Positions 38,001 through 63,487 of a stretch of DNA of 64,000 bases are shown piece by piece (position 1 is the stretch's first letter; every line of letters starts with the position of its first letter). Under the pieces are notes generated by a model, which saw only the letters and a list, made by a program, of their open reading frames with translations, was not told the origin of the DNA and ran no database searches. Made by a program: the position numbers and the translations under genes. This stretch comes from a virus, in the IMG/VR virus record IMGVR_UViG_3300028840_006907, positions 192,001 through 256,000 of that record, one strand, 5' to 3'.

Positions 38001-41000
38001 AGGGCGTTTATAGAATCAGGTTTTTTAAGAGTCAGTGACGGTACTACAGCTTCTCCAATACCTTCATGGGGTGCTACTGGTGCCACAGGAAATACTGGGG
38101 CTACAGGATCCACAGGGGCTACAGGATCAGGGACTCAAGGAACAACAGGAGTTCAAGGATCTGCCGGGGCTACTGGAGCTACTGGACCGGCTGGAACTGG
38201 TTCTACAGGAGTCCAAGGTGTCCAGGGTGAAACCGGTATTCAGGGTCTCCAAGGTGATACGGGTGTTAGTTTAGGAGCAACAGGCTTGCAAGGTATCACA
38301 GGTCTCAGGGGATTCACGGGACTGCAGGGTCAAACCGGTGTTGCTGGGGAAACCGGAGTTCAGGGAGTGCAGGGACAAACCGGAGCTTTTGGTGGCCCTC
38401 CAGGAGAAACTGGCGTGCAAGGTGTCCAAGGAAACACTGGAGTACAAGGAACTACTGGAGTTCAAGGATCAACCGGAGTTCAAGGAATTCAAGGTCAGAC
38501 CGGAATTCAGGGAATCCAAGGAAATACTGGAGTACAAGGAATTCAAGGTAATACTGGAGTACAAGGTCAAACCGGAGTAAGTGGAGAAACTGGAGTACAA
38601 GGAACTACTGGAGTTCAGGGTATTCAAGGTCAAACTGGTATAGCAGGTCAGACAGGTATAGCAGGTCAAACCGGAGTTCAAGGAATCCAGGGAATTCAAG
38701 GTCAAACAGGTGCCCAGGGTTTAACAGGAGTAGCAGGTGAGACTGGAGTCCAAGGATCTCAGGGAAATACCGGAGTTCAAGGTATCCAAGGGCATACGGG
38801 AGCTGGGATACAAGGTACTACTGGTGTTCAAGGTTTACAAGGTCAGACTGGCTCTCAAGGTACTACTGGAATTCAGGGAGAAACTGGTGTAGGTATCCAA
38901 GGTCAGACGGGTGTTGCCGGTGTTGATGGCCAAACCGGAATTCAAGGAATCCAAGGAACCACAGGAGTTCAAGGTGAAACAGGAACTCAAGGAATTCAAG
39001 GAAATACCGGAATTCAAGGAACTCAAGGAAGCACAGGAGTTCAAGGAGAAACTGGAGTTGGTGCTCAAGGAACTACTGGAGTGCAAGGAATACAAGGAAA
39101 TACTGGAGTTCAGGGAACAACCGGAGTTCAGGGAATTCAAGGTCAAACCGGTGTTCAGGGAACACAAGGAGAAACAGGTTATATAGATTCTTCCAGTGTT
39201 AATCATAACGCTCTTCTTAATTTAACTGTTGGTGATGACCATACTCAGTATGCTTTTTTAGCTGGTCGTACTGGTGGGCAAACTATAAATGGTGGTGATG
39301 CTGCTTCAGACGTTTTAACTCTTCAAAGTACTACTGATACTACAAAAGGGAACATCATTCTTAATCCTATTAGTGGGGATGTCCCTGGTAAAGTTGGTAT
39401 AGGAGTAACATCTCCGATTTATCAATTACATGTTGGAGAGATTTTAGATGGCGGTACTGTAGGTATATGTATAAATAACCAGTATACTGCAAATGGATCA
39501 GTTGATGAAACTGCTAGTTTAATATATAGATTTGGTAGGCCACTCAGTCCTCAATATAGAGTAGCAGGTCAAGTATTAGTAGGTAAGGAACAGGATTGGT
39601 GGGATTATAATAGTACTGACGCTTATATGGCTTTTCATACTACTCGTGATACAATTTCACGTGAACAGATGAGAATTAATGCTCAAGGTTATGTTGGAAT
39701 AGGTACAACAAATCCCCAAGCTAAGCTTCATGTAACGACATTTGCTCAATTTGATGAAGGCTTTTCAACTAATATCGGTATAGGTGTTACCGCTCCTCAG
39801 GCACAGTTACATGTCGGAGAGAGTGTAACTGATGGAGATGTTTCAATAATTGTGAATAACTGGTCTTGGACTGGAGGGTCTGTAGATGAGACAGCTAGTT
39901 TACAATTCCGTTTTGGGCCTCCTCCAAGTAATTATTCTGCTGGTAAAATTTCTGCTCATAAAACTTTAGATTATATGAGTTTCGATAATAGAGACTCTTA
40001 TATGACTTTTAGTGTTGTAAATAATCAATCTGAAGTTGAGCGTATGAGGATTTTAAATGATGGAAAGGTAGGTATTGGTACAACTGATCCTCAAGAAAGA
40101 CTGCATGTAATTGATAGGGGTCAATTTGATATGGGGCTACAACAACCTATTGGTATAGGTGTAACGGCTCCATTAGCTGAATTACATGTTGGTAATAGTA
40201 CTAATGGTGGTGATGTAGGCATTATTATTAATAACCAATACAATACTACTGGATCAGTTGATGAAACAGCAAGTTTAATTTATAGATTCGGTACAGTAGG
40301 AAGTGCAAATTATCGAGTAGCTGCCAGAATTTGTGCTCATAAAGAATTAGACTGGCAATCTTTTGATAATGTCGATTCAGCTTTAGCTTTTAGGACTACT
40401 CGAAATCAATCTGAAAATGAAAGAATGAGAATAACTAGTGAAGGTGATGTAGGAATTGGTACTGTCACACCTTCAGAAAAATTACATGTAGAAGGTAATA
40501 TTTATACTACTAATGGTTTTCTTGCTGGTGGGAACATCCAAATTGAAGGGGACTTTTTAGGAGGGACTGATGGTAATTCTAATTTAGGCTCTACTTCAAG
40601 AAGATTTAATAACCTTTATATGGCTTCTTCGATAAATTATAATTCTGATCTAACCTTTGATTGTACGGGTACCCATGTAACCCTTACAACTGGTGGTAAC
40701 GTAGGTATAGGAACTACAAATCCCCAAGGATTATTTCATGTTTCTGATGATACCAATGGTGGTGATGTAGGTATTGTTGTTAGTAATCGCTATATTGGTG
40801 GTGGGTCAGTTGATGAAACAGCTAGTATGATTTATCGTTTTGGCCATCCGTTAGGAGTAGCTAATAAAGTTGCAGCCAGAATAAGTGCCCATAAAGAATT
40901 AGATTGGGCAAACTCTAATAATACTGATGCTGCTTTGATTTTCTGGACTACTCGTGATGCTGTTGAACGACAACAGATGAGAATTGATAGCAATGGTTAC

Positions 41001-45813: not shown

Positions 45814-45828
45814 TGAGTAATATATTTT

Positions 45829-46470: not shown

Positions 46471-46474
46471 AATA

Positions 46475-46999
46475 TCATCCTATCCTAGCTATAATGCGAT
46501 CTTTTAACAAGACAAAGGGAATTTCAATACAACCTACAATCCGGTCTTTGTCTCTTTTATATAAATAAAATCTTTGTACTTCTGATTTGATTCCACATAA
46601 TAACGGTTTACCCAAAGCTTTGACCCAACCAGTCATAGTTTTATCATCTAAGGATGAAGGTTCCATTATATTACTTGGATGAGTATGATTAAAACCTACT
46701 ATTTTATTTCTGTCTCTGATTACTTTTTCCCAGTCAAAATCAACTGAACCAGGACCACCAGTGGATTCATAGATTAGTCTACCATAAATCCATTTGCAGT
46801 ATTTTTTACCATATATGATCCAACAATTTTCGTTAATTGTTTGTACTACTTCAATAGCTTCTATTGTTAATTTATTTTTATTGTAAATACCTTTATATGT
46901 TCGACCACATTCTGGGCATGGCATTCTTTGTGTTTCATTTTCTGTAATCCAGCATATATATTTTCCGCACTTACATGTAAATTCACTGCTTTCGGGCAT
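46475..46999 (-). CDS. JAMM/MPN+ metalloprotease with N-terminal zinc ribbons
   Basis: HTH-PSNIMEP-S-SL-D fits JAMM motif HxHx7Sx2D; two CxxC pairs at N-terminus. Confidence 0.7.
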   Translation of the reverse strand: MPESSEFTCKCGKYICWITENETQRMPCPECGRTYKGIYNKNKLTIEAIEVVQTINENCWIIYGKKYCKWIYGRLIYESTGGPGSVDFDWEKVIRDRNKIVGFNHTHPSNIMEPSSLDDKTMTGWVKALGKPLLCGIKSEVQRFYLYKRDKDRIVGCIEIPFVLLKDRIIARIG

Positions 47000-47025
47000 A
47001 GGGATATATCCTTATTTTAGATTTT

Positions 47026-49462: not shown

Positions 49463-49483
49463 AATATCTCATCCTCCTTATGT

Positions 49484-49750
49484 TCAGGTTTCAATTTTTC
49501 CGAAAGTAGCATTTGGTCTAACTGTAATGTTACCATTTTTATGGTGTTCAACAACTAATTCAGCAAATTCTGATGCTGGTCTATCATAATGATCTACTAA
49601 AGCCAATTTAATTTGTTCACCAGTTATATTATCCGATGTGATCTCGGTTCCTGGTTCAATCCCGAGTTGTTCCCATCTGTCTTCTGGGAAAAGATCTTTG
49701 AGATTAATATCTTCAGTTTGACCATCATACATTATATGGACTTCACTCAT
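49484..49750 (-). CDS. hypothetical small protein (first gene of the Ro60-like operon)
   Basis: ATG at 49750 with RBS AAGGAGG; promoter-like motif upstream; 88 aa. Confidence 0.5.
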   Translation of the reverse strand: MSEVHIMYDGQTEDINLKDLFPEDRWEQLGIEPGTEITSDNITGEQIKLALVDHYDRPASEFAELVVEHHKNGNITVRPNATFGKIET

Positions 49751-49790
49751 ATGAGCCTCCTTGTAATAAGTTAAAAAAAGAGTCCCGTAT

Positions 49791-49806
49791 ATTATACGAC
49801 ACGAGA
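49791..49806 (-). promoter_or_regulatory. promoter-like motif TCTCGTGTCGTATAAT (minus strand)
   Basis: Copy of recurrent element ~35 nt upstream of the minus-strand operon RBS. Confidence 0.45.
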
Positions 49807-49888
49807 TTAACATTTCATTAAGTAAAAAATTGGGTAGAATATAAATTCTTGTGTGTCATCATGGTAAATAACTTTTTTAAAAAAATTA

Positions 49889-49917
49889 TTGACACACTTA
49901 AAATTTATGGTTATATT
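49889..49917 (+). promoter_or_regulatory. sigma70-like promoter candidate for the tRNA / structured RNA locus
   Basis: TTGACA, 17-nt spacer, TATATT, ~40 nt upstream of tRNA. Confidence 0.4.
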
Positions 49918-49955
49918 ATTGACAGTTCTGCACTCTAACTTTTGATGCTTACATA

Positions 49956-50032
49956 GAGAAAATAGCTCAGTTGGTCAGAGCGCGAGATTTAGGTTCTTGA
50001 AGTCTTCGGTTCAATTCCGAATTTTCTTACCA
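49956..50032 (+). tRNA. tRNA, predicted anticodon UAG (Leu-type) with short variable loop and encoded CCA
   Basis: Cloverleaf: acceptor GAGAAAA/TTTTCTT, D arm GCTC-AGTTGGTCA-GAGC, anticodon arm CGAGA-TTTAGGT-TCTTG, 5-nt variable loop, T arm TTCGG-TTCAATT-CCGAA, A73, CCA. Confidence 0.75.
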
Positions 50033-50249
50033 TAAAATTAGCACCTTCAACTTGTGCAGAACTACTTAAACCAAGAAATAAAAGTCAGACATTCTAATTA
50101 TTAGGGCGTACATGGCGTTAAAACCATGCTTCCTGCAGAAATCAGGAAGCAATCTCTGGGCCAAGGCTCAGGGGCGCACTGATGACTTATGTCTGACTTA
50201 ATATAGATTGTAAAGTGTTGTAAAATAAATTTGATCTTTGAAAATTATA

Positions 50250-50429
50250 GGATAATGCCTTCTAACCTGTTGGGCTTACAAATTTTACTGGTTCGACTCC
50301 AGGTTCCGCCTCTCGGTCCTTTTGTAAAGATTGTAAAGGATCAGGAGGCGGAACAAGCCGGGTGGTCTGGCGATTGAATGCAAATCAATTTATTTGAAAT
50401 TAACGCTCTTTTAACTTGGGCATTTATCC
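50250..50429 (+). ncRNA. tRNA-mimic structured RNA unit 1 (Y RNA / YrlA-like candidate)
   Basis: Outer stem GGATAATGCC/GGCATTTATCC then T-run; T-arm-like GGTTCGACTCC; long hairpin GTTCCGCCTC...GAGGCGGAAC; D-arm-like GCCGGGTGGTCTGGC; hairpin ATTGA-ATGCAAA-TCAAT. Confidence 0.55.
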
Positions 50430-50477
50430 TTTTTTATAGTAATTTATAATTTTATATAAAGTGATCTTTGAAAATAT

Positions 50478-50660
50478 GAGGTAAGTGCCTCCTAACATAA
50501 CGGGCTTACAAATTAATAGGGTTCAACTCCCTGTTCCCCCGCCTAAGTCTTTGTCATATAATGATTAAGATTTGGGCGGGGGAACGAGCTGGGTGGTTCA
50601 GCAATCAACGTTTAATTGATGAAAAACATTTTTACGCTCTTTTAACTTAGGCACTTACTC
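50478..50660 (+). ncRNA. tRNA-mimic structured RNA unit 2 (Y RNA / YrlA-like candidate)
   Basis: Outer stem GAGGTAAGTGCC/GGCACTTACTC then T-run; T-arm-like GGGTTCAACTCCC; long hairpin GTTCCCCCGCC...GGCGGGGGAAC; D-arm-like GCTGGGTGGTTCAGC; hairpin ATCAA-CGTTTAA-TTGAT. Confidence 0.55.
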
Positions 50661-50683
50661 TTTTTATTAAATTGAAATTACAA

Positions 50684-50855
50684 GGAGCACCTTCTAACCT
50701 GTTGGGCTTACAAGTTATTCGGGGTTCAAATCCCTGTCCCGGCACTAGGTTGATTCCCTAAAAGTCAACCCAGTGCCGGGATAGCCAAATTGGTAAAGGC
50801 GACTATATTGAACATAGTAAACAAAACTATCTACGCTCTTTTAACTTGGGTGCTC
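50684..50855 (+). ncRNA. tRNA-mimic structured RNA unit 3 (Y RNA / YrlA-like candidate)
   Basis: Outer stem GGAGCACC/GGTGCTC; T-arm-like GGGGTTCAAATCCC; long hairpin TCCCGGCACT...AGTGCCGGGA; D-arm-like GCCAAATTGGTAAAGGC; hairpin ACTAT-ATTGAAC-ATAGT. Confidence 0.55.
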
Positions 50856-50899
50856 TTTATATATTTCTCGCAAAAGGAATACAGGGTGAAACAGGAGTA

Positions 50900-50940
50900 T
50901 AGGGATTAAGAAGAAATTTTTGATCCCTATTTTATTTTTT
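50900..50940 (+). terminator. terminator candidate after RNA locus
   Basis: TAGGGAT ... ATCCCTA stem with 16-nt loop followed by TTTTATTTTTT. Confidence 0.35.
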
Positions 50941-50955: not shown

Positions 50956-50972
50956 CCTTCATGTCGTATAAT
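50956..50972 (+). promoter_or_regulatory. promoter-like motif CCTTCATGTCGTATAAT
   Basis: 16/17 identical to the element at 18192-18208; ~45 nt upstream of ATG 51016. Confidence 0.45.
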
Positions 50973-51015: not shown

Positions 51016-53643
51016 ATGACATGTAAAATTTGTAAGAGTAATCTTTCTTATACTTTTGATAAATTTCCAGCTTATAAGTTCTGTCCTTGTTGTAACCTTT
51101 ATTTTCAAGAAGAATTTCCACCAAAGATATTTGAAGGTCCTGATGAGAATAACGGGCATGGTCCCGGTACAGGTCATTTAATGTCTGAGGATGAAAAGGA
51201 AATAAATAAAAATTTCGCTAATGTTCTCTATGATATGTTTATTCCTCGAACTCTTCTAGATATAGGTTGTAAATACCCCTATTTTATTAGTGTGTTAAAA
51301 GATAAAATAGATGTATTAGGAATTGATCCTATTTCAGAGATCTTGAAATATGGAGAAGAATTGGGTGTCTCTGTAATTCGTGATGATTTTGAAGATATGA
51401 ATATTACTCCTTTAAAAAATAAATTCGATTTAATAACTTTGATACATACTTTCGAACATTTTTATAGCCCAATAGAGACCATGAAAAAGATAATCGAATG
51501 TCTTACTCATAGAGGAGTGCTTTTAATAAGAATTCCAAACATAGATATTGAAGGTATAGAAAGAGATTTTACTGATCATCATGTTCAAATCCATCCCTTT
51601 ATATATTCAACACAAGCAATGTATCGAATCGCTCAAAAATTTGATTGTGAAATTTTTAGGGTCGATGATATTATTGGATATGGCCAGAGCGATTTTTATT
51701 TAAGGAAGAAAAGGGACCATCTTTCTTTATCGGTTTGTATGATTGTAAAAGATGAGGAAAAGAATGTTTCTGATTGTTTGGAGAGTATAAAAGATGTAGC
51801 TGATGAAATCATAGTTGTGGATACCGGATCTATAGATAATACCAAAGAAATAGTATCCAAATATACAACAAAGATATATGACTTTAAATGGATTGATGAC
51901 TTTTCTGCTGCTAGAAATCACTCTTTAAGTAAGGCAACGGGTGACTTTATTTTATGGCTTGATGCTGATGATATTGTAGAAAATCCAGAAAAGATTAATG
52001 AAATATTAAAAAATGATGATGCTAAGATATTTAATTTTAATATTAAATATGGAAATGATGTCTTTAGTCAGGCTAGACTATTTAGGAATTTTTATAATAT
52101 AAAATTTTCTGGTAGAGTTCATGAATATCCTGTAATCGATAATTTATATATAAAAGATACTGAAGTTAATGTAATTCATAAAACCGAAAAACATTCAACA
52201 GAAAACCGTTCTGATAGAAATCTCCGTCTCCTTAAAAAAGAATACGAAGATAATCCGAACAATTCCCGGACACTTTTTTACCTGGCAAGTGCTTATAAAG
52301 AACTTACTCGTTGGGATGAAGCTATAGATTTTTATCGAAAATATTTAACTATTTCTATCTGGAAAGATGAGAGATGGATGGCTCAAAAGAATATTGGATG
52401 TATTCTTTCCTGGAATAGAAAATATGAAGAAGCCATTGAAGAATTGAAGAAGGCTATTGAAATAGATGATCGATGGGCTGAGTCATATTATTATATAGCT
52501 GAGTGTTATTTCTATTTAAAAAACCCTCAAGAATGTATAAACTGGTCTTTAAAAGCTATTGAGAAAAAGATGCCCGAATCACCTCTTTGGAAAGAGATCC
52601 CAATTTATAATGACGCACCATACCGTTATCTCTTTGCTTCTTATGGTTCTTTAGGTGATTTTGAGAAAGCATTGCATTATTGTAAGATAGCATCAGAAAA
52701 AGTTCCTGAGGATGAATGGCTTAAGGAAAGAGTCACTTATTTTGAGAATGCTACAAAAGGAGTTCCTGTTGTAGTCGAATGTAATCGGTGGGGGGCTTTG
52801 GGTGATTGTTTAATGACAACTGCATCTTTACGTGCCATTAAGCATAAGATTCCGGGTTGTTTTATAAGATATGTCACCCATCCTAGTATGTTCCCGATCC
52901 TTGAAGGGAATAAGTTTATAGATGAACTTGTATCAGAATCTAAATCTGAGAACTCAGAAAAGGTTTATTTCTCATATCCTGACAGTAAATCTCCTATTAA
53001 AGATGAAGGTTATCCTAATAAGCCTTTGAATCGCCATTTAGTACGTATATTCGCAGAATGTGCTGGTTTAAAAGAATTTGATAATCTAAAGATGGAGTGT
53101 ACTCTTACAAAAGATGAGGAGAAATCAGGTCAGTCATTGAGATCTCGATTTAAGAAATATGTGACTCTTCATATCCATTCGGGTTGGTCTGAGTATAAGG
53201 ATTGGTATAATGATCGTTGGGAGACTGTTGTAGATGAGTTATTTAAAAGAGGTTACGTGGTTGTTCAGCTAGGCCATAAAGATGAGGGTCTCTTAGTTGG
53301 TACTGTGGATTATAGAGGCCATACTATAAAAGAAGCTATCTCTGCAATAAAATATGCTGATATTCATTTAGGAGTGGATTCATTTACAAACCATGCCTCG
53401 GCTACTGTGGGGACTCCTGCAGTTATTTTATTTGGGTCTACTTCTCCAACCGGTTCCGGGTATGATCAGAATATAAACCTTTATAAAGATTTGAAATGTC
53501 AGCCTTGTTATAAAGAATATGCATGGTCTAAGGATAATAAAGGAAAATGTCCTTATAATAAACTATGTATGGATCAGATCCTGGTTCAGGAAGTATTAGA
53601 CGGTTTTATGAGATTAGAAAAAAAATTATTTATTGATGGATAA
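51016..53643 (+). CDS. multidomain glycosyltransferase (Zn-ribbon, methyltransferase-like, GT2, TPR, GT9-like)
   Basis: N-terminal CxxC pairs; LLDIGC methyltransferase-like motif; GT2 core SVCMIVKDEE...EIIVVDTGSIDNT...LWLDADD; TPR-like helices; C-terminal GT9-type LGVDSFTNHASATVGTPAVILFG. Confidence 0.7.
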   Translation: MTCKICKSNLSYTFDKFPAYKFCPCCNLYFQEEFPPKIFEGPDENNGHGPGTGHLMSEDEKEINKNFANVLYDMFIPRTLLDIGCKYPYFISVLKDKIDVLGIDPISEILKYGEELGVSVIRDDFEDMNITPLKNKFDLITLIHTFEHFYSPIETMKKIIECLTHRGVLLIRIPNIDIEGIERDFTDHHVQIHPFIYSTQAMYRIAQKFDCEIFRVDDIIGYGQSDFYLRKKRDHLSLSVCMIVKDEEKNVSDCLESIKDVADEIIVVDTGSIDNTKEIVSKYTTKIYDFKWIDDFSAARNHSLSKATGDFILWLDADDIVENPEKINEILKNDDAKIFNFNIKYGNDVFSQARLFRNFYNIKFSGRVHEYPVIDNLYIKDTEVNVIHKTEKHSTENRSDRNLRLLKKEYEDNPNNSRTLFYLASAYKELTRWDEAIDFYRKYLTISIWKDERWMAQKNIGCILSWNRKYEEAIEELKKAIEIDDRWAESYYYIAECYFYLKNPQECINWSLKAIEKKMPESPLWKEIPIYNDAPYRYLFASYGSLGDFEKALHYCKIASEKVPEDEWLKERVTYFENATKGVPVVVECNRWGALGDCLMTTASLRAIKHKIPGCFIRYVTHPSMFPILEGNKFIDELVSESKSENSEKVYFSYPDSKSPIKDEGYPNKPLNRHLVRIFAECAGLKEFDNLKMECTLTKDEEKSGQSLRSRFKKYVTLHIHSGWSEYKDWYNDRWETVVDELFKRGYVVVQLGHKDEGLLVGTVDYRGHTIKEAISAIKYADIHLGVDSFTNHASATVGTPAVILFGSTSPTGSGYDQNINLYKDLKCQPCYKEYAWSKDNKGKCPYNKLCMDQILVQEVLDGFMRLEKKLFIDG

Positions 53644-53940
53644 ACGCCATGTAGCAATTATTCCTTTTGGGTTCTCTATAGATACGTTTGTAGTAAATTG
53701 AGAAAGGAGTTCAAAAGGAGTGGTACAAATTACTTCTTTAAGTTCATGCTTATCTATAAGGACTGGTCCATAAGCTACGAAAAAGCAATTAATTATCAAT
53801 TCTATTAGATCAGTTGAGTTAAATTCCTCGATCCATTCTCTCATAAAATCACACCAGGCTTGAGGTGTTGGGGTATCGTCATGTTTTTCAAAGAGTTTTG
53901 CTAATTCCGTATAATCTTGATTTGTGTAAGTGATGCTCAT
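53626..53940 (-). CDS. hypothetical protein
   Basis: 104-aa minus-strand ORF convergent with glycosyltransferase. Confidence 0.35.
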   Translation of the reverse strand: MSITYTNQDYTELAKLFEKHDDTPTPQAWCDFMREWIEEFNSTDLIELIINCFFVAYGPVLIDKHELKEVICTTPFELLSQFTTNVSIENPKGIIATWRLSINK

Positions 53941-54250: not shown

Positions 54251-57200
54251 ATGGCCAAGACAAAAAGGAAATGGATTGAGCTGGATTGGTACAATCCCAA
54301 TGCCTTACGTGCACAAGACATACCTTACGATCAAACCGAAAGTGTAAAAGATGCTATAGATAGAGCTGCCTCTGGAGTTCTCGGTCCGACGGGGACCACG
54401 GGTTCGACCGGTTCAACAGGTTCGACGGGTCCAACGGGTCCGACGGGAGCCACGGGTGCGACGGGAGCAGGAATCCAGGGTGAAACCGGAGTCGCTGGAG
54501 TTCAAGGAGCTACCGGAACCGGTGGTGGTGGAGATACTGGTGTCCAGGGTGAGACCGGTTTACCCGGAGCCACAGGAATCCAAGGTACAACCGGTATCCA
54601 GGGAACTACAGGAATCCAAGGTGAAACTGGAATCCAGGGACATACAGGTACAGTTGGAACAACGGGTGTTCAAGGAGAAACCGGTTCTCAGGGTACTACT
54701 GGAATCCAGGGAGAAACTGGAGTAAAAGGTGAAACTGGTATTCAAGGTCAAACCGGTATAGCTGGTGGAGCAGGATTTCCAGGAGCAACTGGAGTCCAGG
54801 GCGAAACCGGAGTCCAAGGAACTACTGGGGTTCAAGGGGAAACCGGGGTTCAAGGAACCACAGGAGTAGCCGGAGCAACCGGAGTCCAGGGAACTACTGG
54901 CGTCCAGGGAACTACTGGCATCCAAGGTGAAACGGGTGTCCAGGGAGATACTGGAGTTGGTGCCACTGGAATCCAAGGAACCACAGGTATCCAGGGTCAA
55001 ACCGGTGTTCAAGGTATCACCGGAGCTTATGGTGGTCCTCCTGGAGAAACTGGTGTCAAGGGAGAAACCGGAGTACAGGGGGCTACTGGAATCCAAGGTC
55101 TTCAAGGATTGCAGGGAACCAAAGGTGAGACCGGAACACAAGGTATTCAAGGCCAGACCGGAGTTCAGGGAGAAACTGGAGTTCAAGGGCAGACTGGTAC
55201 AGGTGCTCCAGGAGCCACTGGAGTTCAAGGGCAGACTGGTATCCAGGGAACCACTGGAATAGGTTTAGGTTCAACAGGAGTAGCGGGAGCAACTGGAATT
55301 CAAGGTACTACCGGAGTTCAAGGTAGGACTGGAGTCCAAGGATTTACCGGAGCTGCTGGTTTAGGTGAAACTGGTATCCAAGGAGCTACCGGAGTCCAGG
55401 GTGCCACAGGTATTCAAGGGACTACTGGTGCAGGAATCCAAGGAGCCACAGGTATTAGTGGTGACACGGGAGTTCAAGGAGCCACAGGAATTAGAGGTAC
55501 TACTGGTGCAGGAATCCAAGGAGCCACGGGGGTTCAGGGCATTCAAGGTCAAACTGGAGCCCAGGGCGAAACCGGAGTCCAGGGTGAAACCGGAATAGAA
55601 GGTTCTCAATTTGCAGGATTTAATTATAAAGCAAAAACAGACAATCAATCTGATACAGATCCTGGTATAGGAAATTTAAAGTGGAGTGCTGTAGCTCAAG
55701 TCACATCTAGTGAGCTTTATGTGGATGATGCTGACGTTAATTCTACGGATCTCAGTAATTTTTACCTCACTTTAAAAGCTGCCGACTCTTTACGTATTGT
55801 TCGTATGGAAGATCCTTCTCAGTATCAGATTTTTAATATAACAAACGTTACTGATAGAACCGGATGGTTCCGTTTATCTGTTACACCTGTTGTTTCAGGT
55901 GGTTCGACTTTTAGTTTAAATGATAATATCATACTGATATTTAGTATATCAGGTCCTAGAGGTCAGACCGGAGTAAAAGGTGAGACTGGAATTCAAGGAA
56001 CTACAGGTGTTGCCGGAGCCACAGGAGTCCAAGGTCAAACTGGAATTCAGGGTCAAACTGGAATCCAGGGCATACAGGGCCAGACTGGAATTCAAGGACA
56101 AACTGGTATTCAAGGTCAAACAGGAATCCAAGGTCAGACAGGTGTTGGCGCTCAGGGTGCTACTGGTGTAGCTGGTCAAACCGGGGTCCAGGGAGAAACT
56201 GGGATACAAGGTCAGACTGGTGCAGGAATCCAGGGAACTACTGGTGTTCAAGGCGTTCAAGGATTAACAGGTGTGCAAGGCCAGACAGGTGCCGGAATCC
56301 AAGGTGAAACCGGAGTCCAGGGTACTCAAGGTTTAACCGGTATACAGGGTCAGACAGGTGCTGGAATCCAAGGAGAGACTGGTGTTCAGGGAAACACTGG
56401 GGCTTTTGGTGGTCCTCCCGGAGAAACTGGTGTTCAGGGAGAAACTGGTGCACAAGGTTTAACTGGAGTCCAAGGTCAAACCGGAGCAGGTATTCAGGGA
56501 GCCACTGGTATTCAAGGAGTTACTGGAGTTCAAGGCCAAACCGGTGCTGGTATTCAAGGAGTCACTGGAATCCAAGGACAAACTGGTATACAGGGTCAGA
56601 CAGGAGTAGCAGGTCAGACCGGAGTCCAAGGAATACAAGGCCAGACAGGAGTAGCAGGTCAGACCGGAGTTCAAGGAATTCAAGGACAAACCGGAATAGC
56701 AGGTCAGACCGGAGTTCAGGGTATACAAGGTCAAACTGGAATTCAAGGGCAGACTGGTGCTGGAATCCAAGGTACAACTGGAGTAGCCGGAGCTACAGGA
56801 GTTCAGGGAATTCAAGGTCAAACAGGAGCTGGAATCCAAGGTACAACTGGAGTCCAGGGAACTACAGGAGTTCAAGGTGAAACTGGTACTGGTATTCAGG
56901 GAGAAACTGGTACGCAAGGTATTCAGGGTCAAACCGGAATTCAGGGACAGACTGGGATTCAAGGTAATACTGGTGTAAAAGGTGAAACCGGAGTTCAGGG
57001 TTTTCCAGGTCCTCAGGGTACGAAAGGTGATACTGGTGCTCAAGGTATTCAAGGTGAGACAGGAACTCAAGGAATTCAGGGCCAAACTGGAGTAGCTGGA
57101 GAAACTGGAGTTCAGGGTCAAACGGGTACTCAAGGAATTCAGGGTCAGACTGGTGTAGCTGGTGCAACTGGTGCGGGAATTCAAGGTCAAACTGGTGTTC

Positions 57201-60200
57201 AAGGAATCCAAGGTCAGACTGGAATCCAGGGGCAAACTGGAGTCCAGGGTGAAACAGGTATAGAAGGATCTTTATGGGCTGGATTTAGTTATAATGCCAA
57301 GACTGATGATCAGTCAGATACAGATCCTGGTACAGGGAATCTTAAATGGAGTACTGTTGCTCAGGTAAATGCGGGTGAACTTTATGTAGATGATACTGAT
57401 CAATATTCCATAGATTTAAGTAATTTTTATCTTACGTTAAAGGCTGGTGATTCTCTTCGAATAATTCGTCAGGAAGACCCTTCTCAATATCAAATTTATA
57501 ATATAACAAATGTTACAGATAGAACAGGTTGGTTCCGTCTTAGTGTGACCTATGTTACTTCAGGTGGATCTACTTTCAGTCTTAATGATAATATTATTCT
57601 TGTTTTTGTTAAAGCTGGAATTCAAGGTCAGACAGGTGCCCAAGGTATTCAAGGTCAAACAGGAGTCCAAGGAATTCAAGGACAGACTGGAGTTCAAGGA
57701 GCCACAGGTACCCAAGGAATTCAGGGGCCACAAGGCCAGATAGGTCTTCAAGGTACTACTGGGGTCCAAGGTGAAACCGGAGTCCAGGGCACACAAGGTC
57801 AGACGGGTATCCAGGGTACAACAGGTGCCGGGATTCAGGGTCAAACCGGAGTCCAGGGAATTCAGGGTCAAACCGGTATTCAAGGTCAAACAGGAGCAGG
57901 TATTCAGGGAGCTACTGGTATTGCTGGTATAGATGGTCAGACTGGAATCCAGGGTGAAACCGGAATTCAGGGCCAAACTGGAGCTGGTATTCAGGGAGCT
58001 ACTGGTATTGCTGGTATAGATGGTCAGACTGGAATCCAGGGTGAAACCGGAATTCAGGGCCAAACTGGAGCTGGAATCCAAGGTGAAACCGGTATCCAAG
58101 GAATTCAAGGATTAACAGGTATTCAAGGTACAACTGGTGCTGGCATTCAGGGAGAAACTGGAGTACAGGGTACACAAGGTCAAACAGGTGTTCAAGGTCA
58201 AACAGGTGCCGGAATTCAGGGTGAAACCGGAGTCCAGGGCACACAAGGTCAAACCGGTATTCAGGGTCAAACTGGCGCTGGTATCCAAGGTGTGACAGGA
58301 ATTCAAGGAATACAAGGACAAACTGGTATCCAGGGTCAAACGGGTGCCGGAATCCAAGGAGAAACCGGAGTCCAGGGAGAAACAGGAATACAAGGTCAGA
58401 CTGGTGCAGGAATCCAGGGAACTACTGGTGTTCAAGGCGTCCAAGGATTAACAGGTGTCCAGGGTCAAACTGGTGCTGGTATTCAAGGTGAAACCGGAGT
58501 CCAGGGTACTCAAGGTTTAACTGGTATACAGGGTCAGACAGGTGCTGGCATTCAGGGAGAAACCGGGGTCCAGGGAGAAACTGGAATACAAGGTCAGACT
58601 GGTGCAGGGATTCAGGGTGTGACAGGAATTCAAGGTCAAACTGGAGTTCAGGGAACTACAGGAATCCAGGGTCAAACAGGTGTTGGGATCCAGGGTGTGA
58701 CTGGAGTTCAAGGAATTCAAGGTCAAACCGGTATTCAAGGTCAAACCGGTATTCAAGGTGAAACCGGAGTGTCTGGAGCTACAGGTATTCAGGGAATTCA
58801 AGGTCAAACCGGAATCCAGGGTCAGACCGGAGTCCAAGGAGAAACAGGTGTACAAGGTTCTACAGGTGTATTAGGTGATCCTAATTGGATAGATTTTGTA
58901 CCTCAAGCATCTGCTCCTAGTCATCAGGAAGCTCGCCTTTTTTATGATTCAACAGACCATTCATTGAGTTATTACAATGAAGAATCTGATGTTACCCTGA
59001 ATTTAGGTCGTGAATTATATATCAGAGTGTATAATGCAACAGTTTCAACAATAACTAACGGTCAAGTAGTTTATGTCACAGGTGTTGCTGCAGGATACCC
59101 CACAATAGATTTAGCAGATGGTAGTGATTTAACTAAGACTAATAATATAGGAGTGGCTACTCATAATATAGAAGCCTCAACATTTGGTTATATCACATTA
59201 TTTGGATTAGTAAGAGATATTAATACTAATGCTTTCAGTGCTGGTGATGAAGTTTGGTTAAGTGAAAGTACTCCAGGTGGTTACCAGTCTTTTGCAGGTA
59301 CATATGCCGTTAAAATAGGTTATGTTGTTGTTTCAGATACATTAAATGGTTCAATAATGGTAGCTATGGGTGATACGGAAGCTACTATAGCTGGATTGAA
59401 TGATGTAAATCTTACTAGTATCTCTGATGGTCAGTATTTACAATGGGACTCGGATTCTACTAAATGGGTTAATGTTTCTGAAAGTCCTCAAGGTGATACA
59501 GGTATCCAAGGAGCAACTGGAGTTCAAGGAATTCAAGGAACTACAGGAGTTCAAGGAGCAACTGGAGTTCAAGGTATTCAAGGAACCACAGGAATTCAAG
59601 GACAGACCGGAGTTCAGGGTGAAACCGGAATTCAAGGAACTACAGGAGTCCAGGGAGAAACTGGTACTGCAGGAATAGACGGTCAGACAGGAGTTCAGGG
59701 TGAAACCGGTATTGCAGGAATAGATGGTCAGACAGGAGTTCAAGGTACTACCGGAGTTCAGGGAATTCAAGGAACTACAGGAATTCAGGGAGAAACCGGT
59801 ACTGCAGGAATAGACGGTCAGACAGGAGTTCAAGGTGAAACTGGAACTGCAGGAATAGACGGTCAGACAGGAGTTCAAGGTACTACCGGAGTTCAAGGAA
59901 CCACTGGAATTCAAGGTACTACCGGAATTCAGGGAACTACTGGAATTCAGGGAGAAACCGGTACTGCAGGAATAGACGGTCAGACAGGAGTCCAAGGTAC
60001 TACTGGGATTCAGGGGGAAACCGGAGTCCAAGGTACCACAGGGATTCAGGGAGAAACCGGAGTCCAAGGTACTACTGGAATTCAGGGAGAAACTGGTGTT
60101 TTTGGGATTGTCAATTATATCGATTATGAACCTCAAGATACAGTTCCTTCTCATTTAGAAGGTCGTACCTTTTATGACAGTACAGATCATTCTTTAAGTT

Positions 60201-63200
60201 ATTATTTAGATTCAACCGATGTGACTCTTAATATAGGGCAAGAATTTCTTATTCGAGTTGAGAATAAATCGGGTGGAGCAATAGTAGATGGTCAAGCAGT
60301 CTACGTCACTGGTTCTAATGAAGATGTCCCTGAAGTAAATCTAGCAAAAGCAGATTCTTCAAATACTTCTGAGGTTTTAGGTATTGCTACTCAGGTAATT
60401 GAAAATGATACGCAAGGTTATGTTACTTGTGCTGGAAAAATACGTAACTTAAATACTAGTGATTGGACTTCAGGAGATTTACTTTATTTATCTGATAAAA
60501 CTGCTGGTGCATTGACCAATGTTCAACCTTCAGGTAATAGTAATATATTTAGTGTTCATATAGGTCTTGTTATAAGATCACATGCTAGCGATGGTGTTAT
60601 TTTTGCTCACCGTCATATTCCTCATTACCGTCCAGAACAGTTAAGAGATACCACTGCATCTTCTTTAACTGATGGTCAGGTTTTATCTTATGAAAGTAGT
60701 ACAGATAGATGGATAAATAGCACTTTACCTTCAATTACACAATCTATAGATAGAAATGAACCTGGTGGTTTTGTCAACAGAACAGACAGTACAGTAGGTT
60801 TTACTGAATCTACTCGTACTTTGCAAGTTACAACCGCGAGTTCTTATGATATCTATCAGGCTGGTACTAAATATACAATTAATGCAACCGATTCTACTCA
60901 AATTCCTGATACAAATGGTTTGCACTATATTTATTTCGATACCACTAATATGACTGTACAAACGAATCCAGCACTTCAGAATATTCTAGATATCATATAT
61001 GAAAAATCTCTTATTGCTGCGATATATTGGAACTCTTCCGATGATAGAGCTATTATAACCAATGATGAACGTCATGGTATTGTGATGGATGGTAGGACCC
61101 ATTCTTATCTTCATACTACTAGAGGAACTCAATATACATCACCAGGCTTAACTCCTGGAGATTTTGATATTGATGGAGCTGGAAGTAATGACAGTGCCAG
61201 TCAAATGAGTATTTCTGATGGGCAAATACAAGATGAAGATATTTGGTTTGAAATTCAAGATGGTAATCCTCAAATATTAGATCCTATAGCTGAAATTCCT
61301 GTTATTTATAAAGATGGTGCAGGAGCTGAATGGAAAATAAAATATTGGACAGCTTCATGGGCATCTGCAACCTCTTATCCTACTGGTACTATAATAAGAG
61401 AGAGTAATTCTTATTTTAGATCTAGTGGAGGAACTTCAGGTGGTGCTCTTCCTGCTTTTTCTGCAAATCGTGAACCAGGTGATACTATTGTTGATAATAC
61501 AATTACGTGGACAAATGTTGGTTCTCCATTGTCTCCTGTGATTAATTTTGTGGGAGGTAATTATAGATTAGCATATAATCAGTTTACTGGTGGGGCATGG
61601 CAACAAACCGAAGTAACAAATGGTAATTATGTTCTTACTCATATATTTGCTACGACTGATATTTTTCATCCTATTATGGCTATTCAAGGTGAGAATGAGT
61701 ATGGTAATGTTGCTGCAGCTAGAGCAGGAGCTTTAACAGAACTAGATAGTATTGTATTGTCTGGATTGGATTTTCCTGAATCAATATTTCTTGCTACAGT
61801 TATTTTTCAGACTAATAATACTTATACTAATCAAGTAAAAGCTCGAACTATCTCAACTGATACAGGTGATGATTTTATAGATTGGAGATTTTCTCAAATC
61901 AATGCAGCCTCAACAGGTGATCAAGGTCCTCAAGGAGAAACTGGTGTTCAAGGGGTACAGGGTGAAACCGGAGTACAGGGTGAAACCGGAGTAGCAGGAG
62001 CAACTGGTGTTCAAGGAATACAAGGCCAGACTGGAATCCAGGGAGAAACTGGAATTCAAGGAGCCACAGGTGTTGCCGGAGCAACTGGTGTTCAAGGGAT
62101 CCAAGGTCAGACTGGAATCCAAGGAGAAACTGGAATTCAAGGAACTACGGGAGTAGCAGGAGCAACTGGTGTCCAAGGAATCCAAGGAGAAACCGGAATT
62201 CAAGGAGAAACCGGAATTCAAGGAGCAACTGGTGTTCAAGGTATTCAAGGAACAACCGGAGTTCAAGGAATTCAGGGAACCACAGGAGTTCAGGGTGAAA
62301 CCGGAGTCCAAGGAATTCAAGGAACCACAGGAATTCAAGGAATTCAAGGAACCACAGGAGTTCAGGGTGAAACCGGAGTCCAAGGAATTCAAGGAACCAC
62401 AGGAATTCAGGGTGAAACCGGAATTCAAGGAATTCAAGGAACCACAGGAGTTCAGGGAACCACAGGAGTTCAAGGAATACAAGGAACCACAGGAGTTCAG
62501 GGTGAAACCGGAGTCCAAGGAATTCAAGGAACCACAGGAGTTCAGGGAGAAACTGGAGTTCAGGGGATCCAGGGTCAGACTGGAATTCAGGGAGAAACTG
62601 GAGTAGCCGGAGCAACTGGAGTACAGGGCCAAACAGGAGTTCAAGGAATCCAAGGTCAAACTGGTATACAGGGAGAAACCGGAGTAGCCGGAGCAACCGG
62701 AGTACAGGGTCAAACAGGAGTTCAAGGAATCCAAGGACAAACTGGTGTTCAAGGAGCAACCGGAGTAGCCGGAGCTACTGGAGTTCAGGGAGAAACAGGA
62801 ATTCAAGGAATCCAAGGACAAACTGGTATACAGGGAGAAACCGGGGTAGCCGGAGCAACCGGAGTACAGGGCCAAACAGGAGTTCAAGGAATTCAAGGAA
62901 ATACTGGTGTTCAAGGAGCAACCGGAGTTCAAGGAACTCAAGGAGATACTGGAGTTCAAGGAACAACTGGTGTTCAAGGTGAAACCGGTTTAGAAGCAGC
63001 TTATCATTTCTTTGCGGATCAGTTGGATAGTCCTAATAATGCTGATTGGGCTGTTAATGCTCTTGCTCCAGCTTCTGCTGATACTACAAATAATGCTCTT
63101 GTTGTACGTCGGTTTGATGATACGGATGAAGAAGGTGTAGGATTTATGGTAAATATTCCAACAGGAAGGACAAATATAGTATTTGGATTTAAGAGTAGGG

Positions 63201-63487
63201 CTGAAACAGCTCCTGGATCGGCGCATAATGTAAAACCAAAGGTATATGTCAGGGAAATACCTGATAATACTACTGTGGAAAGTTGGTCTTCTGGTTATGA
63301 TTTAAATGCTTTAAGTATGCCAACAAATACCTATTTTCAATATGATTCTCAATCTGTAGCTTTTACCGCTCTTGATATTACAGGTGGGAGATTGGCTCAA
63401 TTTGAAGTAACAAGAGATCATACGGGTGTAACTCCTGATTTAACTGGTGACTGGGACTTGCTAGAGCTTAATGTTTCATTTACCTAG
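54251..63487 (+). CDS. giant collagen-like fiber protein (3078 aa) with duplicated globular modules
   Basis: RBS AAGGAG before ATG 54251; six proline-free GXY tracts separated by two pairs of duplicated non-collagen modules and unique C-terminal domains. Confidence 0.85.
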   Translation: MAKTKRKWIELDWYNPNALRAQDIPYDQTESVKDAIDRAASGVLGPTGTTGSTGSTGSTGPTGPTGATGATGAGIQGETGVAGVQGATGTGGGGDTGVQGETGLPGATGIQGTTGIQGTTGIQGETGIQGHTGTVGTTGVQGETGSQGTTGIQGETGVKGETGIQGQTGIAGGAGFPGATGVQGETGVQGTTGVQGETGVQGTTGVAGATGVQGTTGVQGTTGIQGETGVQGDTGVGATGIQGTTGIQGQTGVQGITGAYGGPPGETGVKGETGVQGATGIQGLQGLQGTKGETGTQGIQGQTGVQGETGVQGQTGTGAPGATGVQGQTGIQGTTGIGLGSTGVAGATGIQGTTGVQGRTGVQGFTGAAGLGETGIQGATGVQGATGIQGTTGAGIQGATGISGDTGVQGATGIRGTTGAGIQGATGVQGIQGQTGAQGETGVQGETGIEGSQFAGFNYKAKTDNQSDTDPGIGNLKWSAVAQVTSSELYVDDADVNSTDLSNFYLTLKAADSLRIVRMEDPSQYQIFNITNVTDRTGWFRLSVTPVVSGGSTFSLNDNIILIFSISGPRGQTGVKGETGIQGTTGVAGATGVQGQTGIQGQTGIQGIQGQTGIQGQTGIQGQTGIQGQTGVGAQGATGVAGQTGVQGETGIQGQTGAGIQGTTGVQGVQGLTGVQGQTGAGIQGETGVQGTQGLTGIQGQTGAGIQGETGVQGNTGAFGGPPGETGVQGETGAQGLTGVQGQTGAGIQGATGIQGVTGVQGQTGAGIQGVTGIQGQTGIQGQTGVAGQTGVQGIQGQTGVAGQTGVQGIQGQTGIAGQTGVQGIQGQTGIQGQTGAGIQGTTGVAGATGVQGIQGQTGAGIQGTTGVQGTTGVQGETGTGIQGETGTQGIQGQTGIQGQTGIQGNTGVKGETGVQGFPGPQGTKGDTGAQGIQGETGTQGIQGQTGVAGETGVQGQTGTQGIQGQTGVAGATGAGIQGQTGVQGIQGQTGIQGQTGVQGETGIEGSLWAGFSYNAKTDDQSDTDPGTGNLKWSTVAQVNAGELYVDDTDQYSIDLSNFYLTLKAGDSLRIIRQEDPSQYQIYNITNVTDRTGWFRLSVTYVTSGGSTFSLNDNIILVFVKAGIQGQTGAQGIQGQTGVQGIQGQTGVQGATGTQGIQGPQGQIGLQGTTGVQGETGVQGTQGQTGIQGTTGAGIQGQTGVQGIQGQTGIQGQTGAGIQGATGIAGIDGQTGIQGETGIQGQTGAGIQGATGIAGIDGQTGIQGETGIQGQTGAGIQGETGIQGIQGLTGIQGTTGAGIQGETGVQGTQGQTGVQGQTGAGIQGETGVQGTQGQTGIQGQTGAGIQGVTGIQGIQGQTGIQGQTGAGIQGETGVQGETGIQGQTGAGIQGTTGVQGVQGLTGVQGQTGAGIQGETGVQGTQGLTGIQGQTGAGIQGETGVQGETGIQGQTGAGIQGVTGIQGQTGVQGTTGIQGQTGVGIQGVTGVQGIQGQTGIQGQTGIQGETGVSGATGIQGIQGQTGIQGQTGVQGETGVQGSTGVLGDPNWIDFVPQASAPSHQEARLFYDSTDHSLSYYNEESDVTLNLGRELYIRVYNATVSTITNGQVVYVTGVAAGYPTIDLADGSDLTKTNNIGVATHNIEASTFGYITLFGLVRDINTNAFSAGDEVWLSESTPGGYQSFAGTYAVKIGYVVVSDTLNGSIMVAMGDTEATIAGLNDVNLTSISDGQYLQWDSDSTKWVNVSESPQGDTGIQGATGVQGIQGTTGVQGATGVQGIQGTTGIQGQTGVQGETGIQGTTGVQGETGTAGIDGQTGVQGETGIAGIDGQTGVQGTTGVQGIQGTTGIQGETGTAGIDGQTGVQGETGTAGIDGQTGVQGTTGVQGTTGIQGTTGIQGTTGIQGETGTAGIDGQTGVQGTTGIQGETGVQGTTGIQGETGVQGTTGIQGETGVFGIVNYIDYEPQDTVPSHLEGRTFYDSTDHSLSYYLDSTDVTLNIGQEFLIRVENKSGGAIVDGQAVYVTGSNEDVPEVNLAKADSSNTSEVLGIATQVIENDTQGYVTCAGKIRNLNTSDWTSGDLLYLSDKTAGALTNVQPSGNSNIFSVHIGLVIRSHASDGVIFAHRHIPHYRPEQLRDTTASSLTDGQVLSYESSTDRWINSTLPSITQSIDRNEPGGFVNRTDSTVGFTESTRTLQVTTASSYDIYQAGTKYTINATDSTQIPDTNGLHYIYFDTTNMTVQTNPALQNILDIIYEKSLIAAIYWNSSDDRAIITNDERHGIVMDGRTHSYLHTTRGTQYTSPGLTPGDFDIDGAGSNDSASQMSISDGQIQDEDIWFEIQDGNPQILDPIAEIPVIYKDGAGAEWKIKYWTASWASATSYPTGTIIRESNSYFRSSGGTSGGALPAFSANREPGDTIVDNTITWTNVGSPLSPVINFVGGNYRLAYNQFTGGAWQQTEVTNGNYVLTHIFATTDIFHPIMAIQGENEYGNVAAARAGALTELDSIVLSGLDFPESIFLATVIFQTNNTYTNQVKARTISTDTGDDFIDWRFSQINAASTGDQGPQGETGVQGVQGETGVQGETGVAGATGVQGIQGQTGIQGETGIQGATGVAGATGVQGIQGQTGIQGETGIQGTTGVAGATGVQGIQGETGIQGETGIQGATGVQGIQGTTGVQGIQGTTGVQGETGVQGIQGTTGIQGIQGTTGVQGETGVQGIQGTTGIQGETGIQGIQGTTGVQGTTGVQGIQGTTGVQGETGVQGIQGTTGVQGETGVQGIQGQTGIQGETGVAGATGVQGQTGVQGIQGQTGIQGETGVAGATGVQGQTGVQGIQGQTGVQGATGVAGATGVQGETGIQGIQGQTGIQGETGVAGATGVQGQTGVQGIQGNTGVQGATGVQGTQGDTGVQGTTGVQGETGLEAAYHFFADQLDSPNNADWAVNALAPASADTTNNALVVRRFDDTDEEGVGFMVNIPTGRTNIVFGFKSRAETAPGSAHNVKPKVYVREIPDNTTVESWSSGYDLNALSMPTNTYFQYDSQSVAFTALDITGGRLAQFEVTRDHTGVTPDLTGDWDLLELNVSFT
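54385..55595 (+). repeat. collagen-like GXY triplet tract (first of six in this gene)
   Basis: Uninterrupted Gly every third codon (GPTGTTGSTG...GETGIEG); further tracts about 55961-57260, 57614-58875, 59491-60100, 61921-62990. Confidence 0.85.

Follow-up and report, generated by a model that had tools for sequence, protein, structure and literature searches.

Why should a phage combine, in a single protein, what appear to be a methyltransferase and two glycosyltransferases, and what would such a protein modify when its gene lies directly upstream of a gene for a giant collagen-like protein? The question is raised by a stretch of 64,000 nucleotides (nt), positions 192,001 to 256,000 of IMG/VR virus record IMGVR_UViG_3300028840_006907, which was analysed at its full length and is called the window here. 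It has a GC content of ~34% and is phage-like in its genes, which include a large-terminase homologue, an intein-bearing ribonucleotide reductase, clamp-loader subunits, a NAD-ligase and RecD2/UvrD helicases. A first-pass annotation of its sequence had proposed that an 875-amino acid (aa) protein encoded on its plus strand at 51016-53643 glycosylates Thr residues in the collagen tracts of the neighbouring protein, and had argued for that target from gene position alone. Domain searches, structure prediction and comparison of loci now lead us to think it probable that this protein is a soluble cytoplasmic enzyme with three activities that glycosylates the phage's own giant collagen-like putative fibre proteins.

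The open reading frame (ORF) is present as described, and four metagenome assemblies, independent of one another, give the same gene call and a protein of 100% identity, on contigs that reach 469.6 kb in length. The peptides quoted in its support are found at residues 263-276 (DEIIVVDTGSIDNT), 315-319 (LDADD) and 785-807 (LGVDSFTNHASATVGTPAVILFG), and the four domain types named, methyltransferase, GT2, tetratricopeptide repeats (TPR) and GT9, were all borne out by domain searches, with Pfam scores above the curated cut-offs. An AlphaFold2 model of the enzyme, built with 21 homologues, has a mean predicted local distance difference test score (pLDDT) of 86.3 and shows a small N-terminal ribbon followed by a Rossmann methyltransferase fold and a GT-A domain; after these come a TPR block made up entirely of helices and, last, a GT-B domain with two lobes. 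No hydrophobic or transmembrane segment is present (the maximum Kyte-Doolittle 19-residue mean is 0.92), so the enzyme should be cytoplasmic and soluble. When a phage collection was searched with the gene, no near-identical DNA was found, and tblastn gave only distant matches to the GT2-TPR portion, at no more than 30% identity; in BFVD, uncharacterised GT2(+TPR) proteins from phages and giant viruses are numerous, and there is a phage "Aah/TibC" protein. Some 30 full-length homologues with 48-76% identity keep the domain order, as do others with 28-35%; in three homologues (P0024, P0027 and P0029) the methyltransferase domain is missing and the remaining domains are kept. Residue conservation is given below as invariant or at least 90% conserved among the 21 homologues, which reach down to 32% identity, and the conservation on this scale of residues at functional positions of the methyltransferase, GT2 and GT9 domains speaks for selection on each of the three catalytic modules.

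The GT2 and TPR domains together resemble enzymes that glycosylate proteins. Glycos_transf_2 (PF00535) matches residues 239-359 with 74.3 bits against a gathering threshold of 23.3, and TPR_1 and TPR_2 match residues ~400-530 with 54.8 and 53.4 bits against ~27; the TPR helices (398-580) have pLDDT values above 90 in the model. Ten GT2 residues are invariant (D269, T270, G271, S272, D274, D316, D318, D319, H369 and E370), among them the DxD motif (D316-A-D318-D319) and the N-terminal nucleotide-binding Asp (D269/D274) that characterise the GT2 family. PHROG 13126 spans both domains (residues 238-578, E 2.5e-44). The best non-synthetic sequence match in the PDB is the glycosyltransferase domain of Listeria GmaR (E 1.6e-42 with the family profile and 1.6e-28 with the single sequence), SunS and ThuS rank after it in the family-profile search, and Foldseek places SunS/ThuS at the top for GT2 plus the helical repeats (E 3e-19, TM-score 0.71 on 7msp). 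GmaR, a MogR anti-repressor in which GT2 is followed by TPR, attaches O-linked N-acetylglucosamine (GlcNAc) directly to Ser/Thr of flagellin (PMC9638930). The Listeria monocytogenes protein shares with the phage enzyme both this domain order and long identical runs (VDTGSxDxTKEI and DFSAARN); it differs in its flagellin substrate, in having a C-terminal anti-repressor domain, and in having no methyltransferase or GT-B domain. OGT/SPINDLY enzymes likewise carry a protein-gripping TPR array N-terminal to a GT-B domain (Foldseek E ~1e-10 over TPR plus GT-B), but they belong to GT41 rather than GT9 and have neither GT-A nor methyltransferase domain, and the resemblance comes mostly through the TPR repeats.

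A further precedent supplies a possible acceptor. SgtA of Clostridioides difficile (358 aa, GT2 plus four TPR) is encoded immediately upstream of bclA3, and in vitro it transfers beta-O-GlcNAc from UDP-GlcNAc, with Mn2+, onto Thr of BclA3 collagen-repeat peptides (PMC7157674). We liken the phage enzyme to SgtA by layout and context, not by alignment: GT2 is directly followed by TPR, the catalytic domain is similar to that of GmaR, and the gene lies upstream of a collagen-like gene with G-X-Thr triplets. The differences are that SgtA has a single activity, whereas the phage enzyme adds a zinc-ribbon methyltransferase and a Cys4-bearing GT9-type domain, and that the context of SgtA is the spore, whereas that of the phage enzyme is the virion.

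The gene for the giant collagen-like protein is, as had been noted, the next one on the plus strand, and its start lies 607 nt past the glycosyltransferase stop. Its 3078-aa product, the proposed main substrate, contains 589 G-X-Y triplets in which Y is Thr in 257 and Gln in 238, while position X is occupied mainly by Val, Ile, Gln, Thr, Ala or Glu. Tracts rich in G-P-T, the composition that BclA also has, are encoded at many of the bacterial loci considered below, whereas the phage protein alternates G-X-T with G-X-Q and is almost free of Pro; its collagen blocks contain 0.8% Pro and 0.3% Lys, and KGE plus KGD account for only 6 of 552 Y-G-X triplets. Bacterial and viral collagen-like proteins contain an excess of Thr triplets, which has been rationalised by Thr glycosylation, and (Gly-Pro-Thr)10 is triple-helical once its Thr residues are galactosylated and a random coil when unglycosylated (PMC11923368). 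Since the collagen of the window lacks both Pro/hydroxyproline and Lys-Glu/Asp clamps, the two established stabilisers, it is reasonable to suppose that it depends on Thr glycosylation. A second giant gene, farther upstream in the window, encodes a shorter collagen-like block of similar composition and would be an equally likely substrate.

Several minor features of the 3078-aa giant and its surroundings may be recorded here. The only ORF in the gap between enzyme and collagen genes is a 104-aa antisense one (53626-53940, minus strand), which overlaps the enzyme stop by 18 nt and is called in the four assemblies; it has no family match and no homologue in related phages, and so is probably spurious. 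The length of the giant gene varies among assemblies of the same phage (loci L007-L010; 2980, 3049 and 3078 aa), which would reflect either variation in repeat number or assembly collapse in the repeats. Two non-collagen inserts of ~115 aa (residues 454-567 and 1009-1122) are paralogous, and a domain that follows block 3 and again block 4 matches Phage_cement_2 (PF09956, E 1.6e-6). The C-terminal 163 aa were modelled with AlphaFold2 as a check for a BclA/C1q-like knob, and the pLDDT of 34 is too low for the model to be of use.

Genes of this enzyme family lie near G-X-Thr genes far more often than do other viral loci. A scan of viral contigs yielded 79 further loci. After dereplication there were 47 clusters encoding GT2-TPR-GT9, with or without the methyltransferase (28-76% identity), and a locus was scored as collagen-positive if at least 16 G-X-Y triplets were present within 10 kb. 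By this measure 27 of the 47 clusters are positive, and Thr dominates position Y in 26 of those 27; the corresponding numbers are 1 of 16 for weak, GT9-only clusters (p 3e-4) and 1 of 120 for arbitrary viral loci (Fisher p 2e-17), which were taken from the RNA-scaffold motif scan described below, total 1.0 Mb and are on average shorter, although the contrast per kilobase is still ~27 to 1. Among the nearer relatives, an orthologous collagen gene follows the enzyme gene in L004 (62% identity) and L012 (54%), and the N-terminal 40 aa of the 3078-aa giant are conserved beside the glycosyltransferase in L004, L005, L012 and L001. The arrangement differs in others: L001-L003 (58% identity, no methyltransferase domain) have four other genes between enzyme and collagen genes; L013 (56% identity, with different upstream genes) has collagen-like giants within 500 bp on the opposite strand; and in L014 (48% identity) a GXT protein is encoded ~3 kb upstream whose C-terminal 160 aa are 50% identical to those of the window's giant.

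The association extends to bacteria. The nearest bacterial GT2-TPR homologues were examined at 80 loci (L095-L173), mostly from Clostridia, Bacilli and Paenibacillus, with 31-38% identity over the whole module (~345 aa), and at 41 of them G-X-Thr collagen-like ORFs lie no more than 8 kb away, often directly against the glycosyltransferase gene. Neither methyltransferase nor GT9 domains are encoded beside the bacterial GT2-TPR genes, with the exception of one phage-like contig in a metagenome-assembled genome. Together, the homology to protein glycosyltransferases, the viral and bacterial counts and the analogy with SgtA support Thr of the collagen tracts as the probable target, as the first-pass annotation had it. 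They also suggest that SgtA-type Thr glycosylation of collagen may be a widespread and largely unannotated trait of Firmicutes. Abutting GT2-TPR and G-X-Thr gene pairs were seen in Syntrophomonas and Veillonellaceae genomes as well.

Might the enzyme instead glycosylate some other protein, such as host flagellin in the manner of GmaR, the capsid or tail tube, or a small Cys/Ser peptide in the manner of the glycocin enzyme SunS? GmaR does provide the best sequence match among solved structures, the SunS family (TIGR04195) is the best NCBIfam match, and 20 of the 47 family clusters, including L011 and L017 at 35% identity, have no collagen-like ORF within 10 kb. SunS and ThuS are S-glycosyltransferases of glycocins, whose substrates are small Cys-containing peptides; unlike them, the phage enzyme has no small Cys-peptide precursor in view near its gene, and its TIGR04195 score is 78.7 bits against a cut-off of 350. 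Inspection of the called genes in the loci examined revealed no flagellin or glycocin-like gene beside the enzyme gene. Such a substrate also sits poorly with the G-X-Thr genes that adjoin 41 of the 80 nearest bacterial homologues, and we regard it as rather unlikely.

The relatives of the C-terminal GT9-type domain point in two directions. Glyco_transf_9 (PF01075) matches residues 690-834 with 39.2 bits (gathering threshold 22). A PDB search with the domain's sequence alone is almost empty and the family profile is needed, with which 3tov (1e-12), WaaC (3e-8), TibC (6.7e-6) and WaaF (1e-5) are found; Foldseek gives 3tov (1.6e-13), WaaF (1.9e-11) and TibC (1.6e-10). Invariant residues are R591, G593, G596, D597, G723, W724, S725, K728, G786, D788, S789, N792, H793, G807, S808 and T809, and the features of the GT9 family are present, namely a GT-B fold together with a catalytic Asp in an N-terminal GD motif and nucleotide-binding motifs in the C-lobe, these motifs aligning to WaaC and TibC. 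TibC is a protein O-heptosyltransferase that hyper-heptosylates a highly repetitive protein; its Cys339, Cys342, Cys358 and Cys370 bind ferric iron in an "iron-finger" that has a structural role in oligomerisation (PMC4358343). The C-lobe of the phage domain carries an inserted four-Cys cluster of the kind that marks BAHT enzymes, and C828, C831, C845 and C851 align residue for residue with the four Cys of TibC, while D597 and K728 match its catalytic base D110 and sugar-binding K230. Confidence of the AlphaFold2 model is low at the Cys4 cluster, as expected because the metal site is unmodelled. The phage domain is thus like TibC/Aah (BAHT) in its heptosyltransferase-type GT-B fold, Cys4 finger, catalytic Asp and sugar-binding Lys; it seems to differ in that, where TibC has an N-terminal beta-barrel, the phage domain comes directly after the TPR block, and the profile match is confined to TibC residues 215-385.

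GT9 is mainly a family of lipopolysaccharide (LPS) heptosyltransferases, and this domain could accordingly be taken as a sign that the enzyme remodels the host envelope, with, for example, heptosylation, GT2 action and a methyl cap altering LPS core or another glycolipid or polysaccharide so as to exclude superinfection or mask receptors, while the collagen gene would be next door by coincidence. WaaC and WaaF are among the closest characterised relatives by profile, JGI calls some homologues "ADP-heptose:LPS heptosyltransferase", a weak PHROG match to GtrB-like O-antigen conversion exists (E 3.6e-4), and methyl capping of glycan chains is known from O-antigen and S-layer glycan pathways. All of the equivalog models for LPS heptosyltransferases, however, score far under their cut-offs (TIGR02193, 28.0 against 185; TIGR02195, 20.6 against 135; TIGR02201, 35.1 against 170; RfaQ, 37.4 against 467), the GT2-TPR half resembles protein and peptide glycosyltransferases and not polysaccharide synthases, the Cys4 finger is a TibC-type feature, and there is no membrane segment. 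Envelope remodelling would, moreover, not account for the strong and recurrent proximity to G-X-Thr genes in both viruses and bacteria, and it seems to us improbable.

At the N-terminus, a four-Cys ribbon precedes a class I methyltransferase domain that depends on S-adenosylmethionine (SAM). Methyltransf_23 matches residues 77-213 with 57.5 bits against a gathering threshold of 27, PDB entry 3cc8 is matched with an E of 1.4e-6, and both motif I and the acidic residue after beta-2 that are expected of a class I SAM-methyltransferase are conserved: D82 and G84 (motif I), D138, E147 and H148 are invariant and D104 is nearly so. Motif I itself is atypical, with LDIGCKYP in place of GxGxG. The nucleotide-sugar C3-methyltransferases TcaB9 and KijD1 are built in the same way at their N-terminus, with a four-Cys zinc ribbon ahead of a class I fold (Foldseek E 2e-10 to 5e-10). 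Those proteins have ~400 aa with a C-terminal domain that binds nucleoside diphosphate sugars, whereas the phage module of ~230 aa comprises ribbon and methyltransferase only, with GT2 next, and so does not have the three-domain make-up of the TcaB9 type; because it is this short, its substrate cannot be inferred from TcaB9/KijD1.

The atypical motif I, the absence of the methyltransferase from P0024, P0027 and P0029, and the structural role of the finger in TibC raise the thought that the methyltransferase or GT9-like domain is a degenerate scaffold, in which case the enzyme would in effect be an SgtA-like single-step transferase of O-linked N-acetylhexosamine (HexNAc). We think this quite improbable, as D82, G84, D104, D138 and E147 of the methyltransferase and D597, K728, D788 and the GST at 807-809 of the GT9 domain are invariant or nearly so in homologues down to 32% identity. 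Finally, phages commonly encode glycosyltransferases for base hypermodification, glycosylated 5-hydroxycytosine is the subject of a 2026 paper and the window is rich in DNA-metabolism genes, but glycosylation of phage DNA in place of protein is highly improbable, since no similarity to DNA glycosyltransferases appeared in Pfam, NCBIfam, PHROG, PDB or Foldseek searches, a protein acceptor is what one would expect from the TPR block and from homology to GmaR, SgtA and TibC, and the collagen co-localisation would go unexplained.

Comparative evidence thus supports the view that the enzyme is an SgtA-type collagen Thr-glycosyltransferase that would have been expanded in large phages to four domains. 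In the scheme that we infer for its acceptor, sugars, order of steps, methyl acceptor and structural role, the TPR block would hold the repetitive substrate while the metal-dependent GT2 domain (GT-A, with DxD) O-links a first sugar to the Y-position Thr of G-X-T triplets; judging from SgtA and GmaR, its analogues, this sugar would most likely be a beta-HexNAc. The GT9-type GT-B domain with its TibC-like Cys4 finger may add a second sugar, either by extending the first or by acting directly on other Ser/Thr residues, and the N-terminal zinc-ribbon methyltransferase may methylate a sugar, as a cap or at the nucleotide-sugar stage. Dense glycosylation of Thr would then let very long triple helices fold and stay folded, and would give the fibres a glycan surface.

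Several points weigh against the reading of the enzyme as a collagen glycosyltransferase. The structures nearest to the GT9 domain are the uncharacterised GT9 protein 3tov and WaaF, slightly ahead of TibC, and the BAHT model TIGR04414 gives 22.8 bits against a cut-off of 200; with scores this far below the equivalog cut-offs of SunS, TibC/Aah and the LPS heptosyltransferases, specificity is not transferable from any one of them. The clusters that have no collagen-like ORF nearby mean that the link is not obligatory or that the partner lies further off, and synteny is conserved among related phages in any case, so that close relatives add little independent weight. The "virion fibre" label of the giants rests only on matches to tail-fibre PHROG families, and it is the collagen repeats that produce these matches. 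A look through the window's larger ORFs for nucleotide-sugar synthesis genes turned up only genes for replication and repair, ribonucleotide reductase and terminase. Lastly, the phage is known from metagenomes alone.

We also entertain, tentatively and with some doubt, a stronger version of this scheme, in which the enzyme would be a self-contained, one-polypeptide assembly line for glycans, peculiar to phages (SgtA-like initiation, TibC-like extension and a methyl cap) that works processively on hundreds of Y-position Thr in fibres of 2000-3000 residues, the glycans being the primary stabiliser of a helix free of Pro and of salt bridges. If true, this would be the first collagen glycosylation system of a virus of bacteria, and a Thr-glycan counterpart of prolyl hydroxylation; our literature search found no paper on such a system in phages. 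The collagen-glycosylation reading as such, if correct, would mean that very large phages make hair-like or tail fibres of glycosylated collagen by means of a relative of a Clostridioides spore enzyme, and it would explain how kilobase-long triple helices fold without proline, hydroxyproline or Lys-Glu/Asp clamps. The fibres would be predicted to present a methylated glycan surface to hosts and environment, and a whole uncharacterised family of multi-domain viral glycosyltransferases, from at least 47 distinct viral loci, some with sulfotransferase or GT1 domains, would gain a testable function. Such an enzyme could also serve to glycosylate and stabilise recombinant bacterial-type collagens.

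Some homologues carry additional domains. Four of them (P0018, P0019, P0022 and P0023; 1162-1443 aa) have an extra N-terminal GT1-like domain (Glyco_trans_1_2), as does the L013 protein (10001-13498), and in P0022 and P0023 a sulfotransferase domain (PF00685/PF13469) stands ahead of the methyltransferase-GT2-TPR-GT9 core. These additions fit a line that builds and tailors glycans, and they would imply more elaborate, possibly sulfated glycans in some phages. A further homologue, P0011 (1281 aa), contains intein and LAGLIDADG domains within the glycosyltransferase. Coordinates of the features in the window are collected in Table 1.

Table 1. Positions of the enzyme gene, its predicted domains, the candidate substrates and other features of the window
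Feature	Position in window	Strand	Remarks
Four-domain enzyme gene (Zn-ribbon/methyltransferase - GT2 - TPR - GT9-like)	51016..53643	+	ATG start, 875 aa
Cys4 ribbon (C3, C6, C23, C26)	51016..51099	+	all four Cys at least 90% conserved, 21 homologues
Class I SAM-dependent methyltransferase domain, residues 77-213	51244..51654	+	Pfam Methyltransf_23, E 1.8e-15
GT2 (GT-A) domain, residues 239-388; DTGSxD 269-274, DxDD 316-319	51730..52179	+	Pfam PF00535, E 1.5e-20
TPR block, residues ~398-580, all-helical	52207..52755	+	Pfam TPR_1, TPR_2, TPR_12
GT9-type GT-B glycosyltransferase domain, residues 586-875	52771..53640	+	Pfam PF01075, E 6.5e-10
Cys4 cluster C828-x-P-C831...C845...C851, inserted in GT9 C-lobe	53497..53568	+	invariant in family
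Giant collagen-like protein, 3078 aa, proposed main substrate	54251..63487	+	five G-X-Y blocks
G-X-Y blocks of 3078-aa protein	aa 42-453, 568-1008, 1123-1544, 1748-1954, 2556-2915		
Second giant gene, 2337 aa	35040..42053	+	Pfam Collagen, E 2e-47; PHROG tail-fibre families
Collagen-like block in second giant gene, 120 triplets	38070..39185	+	Y = Thr 51, Gln 50
Promoter-like -10 element TGTCGTATAAT, putative	50962..50972	+	44 nt before start codon, after T-rich tract
RNA array bounds	sigma-70-like promoter 49889-49917; terminator-like hairpin 50899-50930	+	
Five tandem RNA cassettes	49923-50064, 50082-50199, 50250-50428, 50480-50659, 50682-50858	+	common scaffold
ThiF-type E1-like protein	45829-46470	-	
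JAB-domain protein	46475-46999	-	weak match

The enzyme gene had been described as driven by a recurrent promoter-like motif and as having a weak ribosome-binding site. The motif does recur, though only to a modest extent: exact copies of the 11-mer TGTCGTATAAT lie at 18198 (+), 49791 (-) and 50962 (+), each just before an ORF start, and with up to one mismatch there are 4 matches in the window against 1.3 expected, a number that 2 of 100 shuffles reach. A generic sigma-70 scan made no call at the element ahead of the enzyme gene, and a related CGTATAAT box lies ahead of the collagen gene at 53908. "Weak" is a fair description of the ribosome-binding site, as the Shine-Dalgarno sequence amounts only to AGG(T), ~10 nt before the ATG. 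Both details are therefore acceptable, if weakly supported. Similar -10-like sequences, (TGT)CGTATAAT, are present on the plus strand at 18198-18215 and 21029-21045 (CGTATAATaaGTATGG and CGTATAATATGTATGG), only 4-5 nt before the ATG of the ORFs starting at 18213 and 21041, and this short distance suggests leaderless transcripts or mis-set starts for those two ORFs.

The 1.1 kb immediately upstream of the enzyme gene (49889-50930, plus strand) is filled by an array of RNA genes. The cassettes share a scaffold that consists of a 10-11-bp closing stem which covaries between cassettes, a 5' YCUAAY-N4-6-NGCNUACA element, a covarying 4-bp P2 and a 3' GCNCYUUUNAACU. Of their five payloads, one is a canonical tRNA-Leu(UAG) and one a 57-nt hairpin RNA; the other three are units of 116-119 nt in which a T-arm, a closed acceptor-like hairpin, a D-arm and an anticodon arm follow one another, that is, tRNA-like structures in circularly permuted order; after in-silico un-permutation, ARAGORN calls two of these units tRNA-Lys(UUU) and tRNA-Ser(UGA). 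Rfam has no family for the RNA elements of the array, and a scan of the collection for the scaffold motif gave only single matches at chance level, without a full cassette at any of 120 other viral loci. The scaffold is also present in the relatives L012 (7416-8419) and L004 (9280-9700).

Between the UvrD helicase and this array lies a conserved minus-strand block (44027-49813), whose proteins are 53-68% identical to those of L004 and L012. Besides the ThiF-type and JAB-domain proteins of Table 1, it encodes conserved proteins of 299 aa, 518 aa (with a weak HNH PHROG match) and ~88 aa that have no Pfam match. The ORF at 47906-49462, beside the RNA array, was considered as a Ro60/TROVE protein and rejected, as it has no Pfam match. 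The pairing of a phage E1 with a JAB protein suggests a function in ubiquitin-like conjugation or deconjugation. Elsewhere in the window, the gene for the large subunit of ribonucleotide reductase (12003-16085, plus strand) is interrupted by an intein, which itself includes a LAGLIDADG homing endonuclease (Intein_splicing, residues 124-534).

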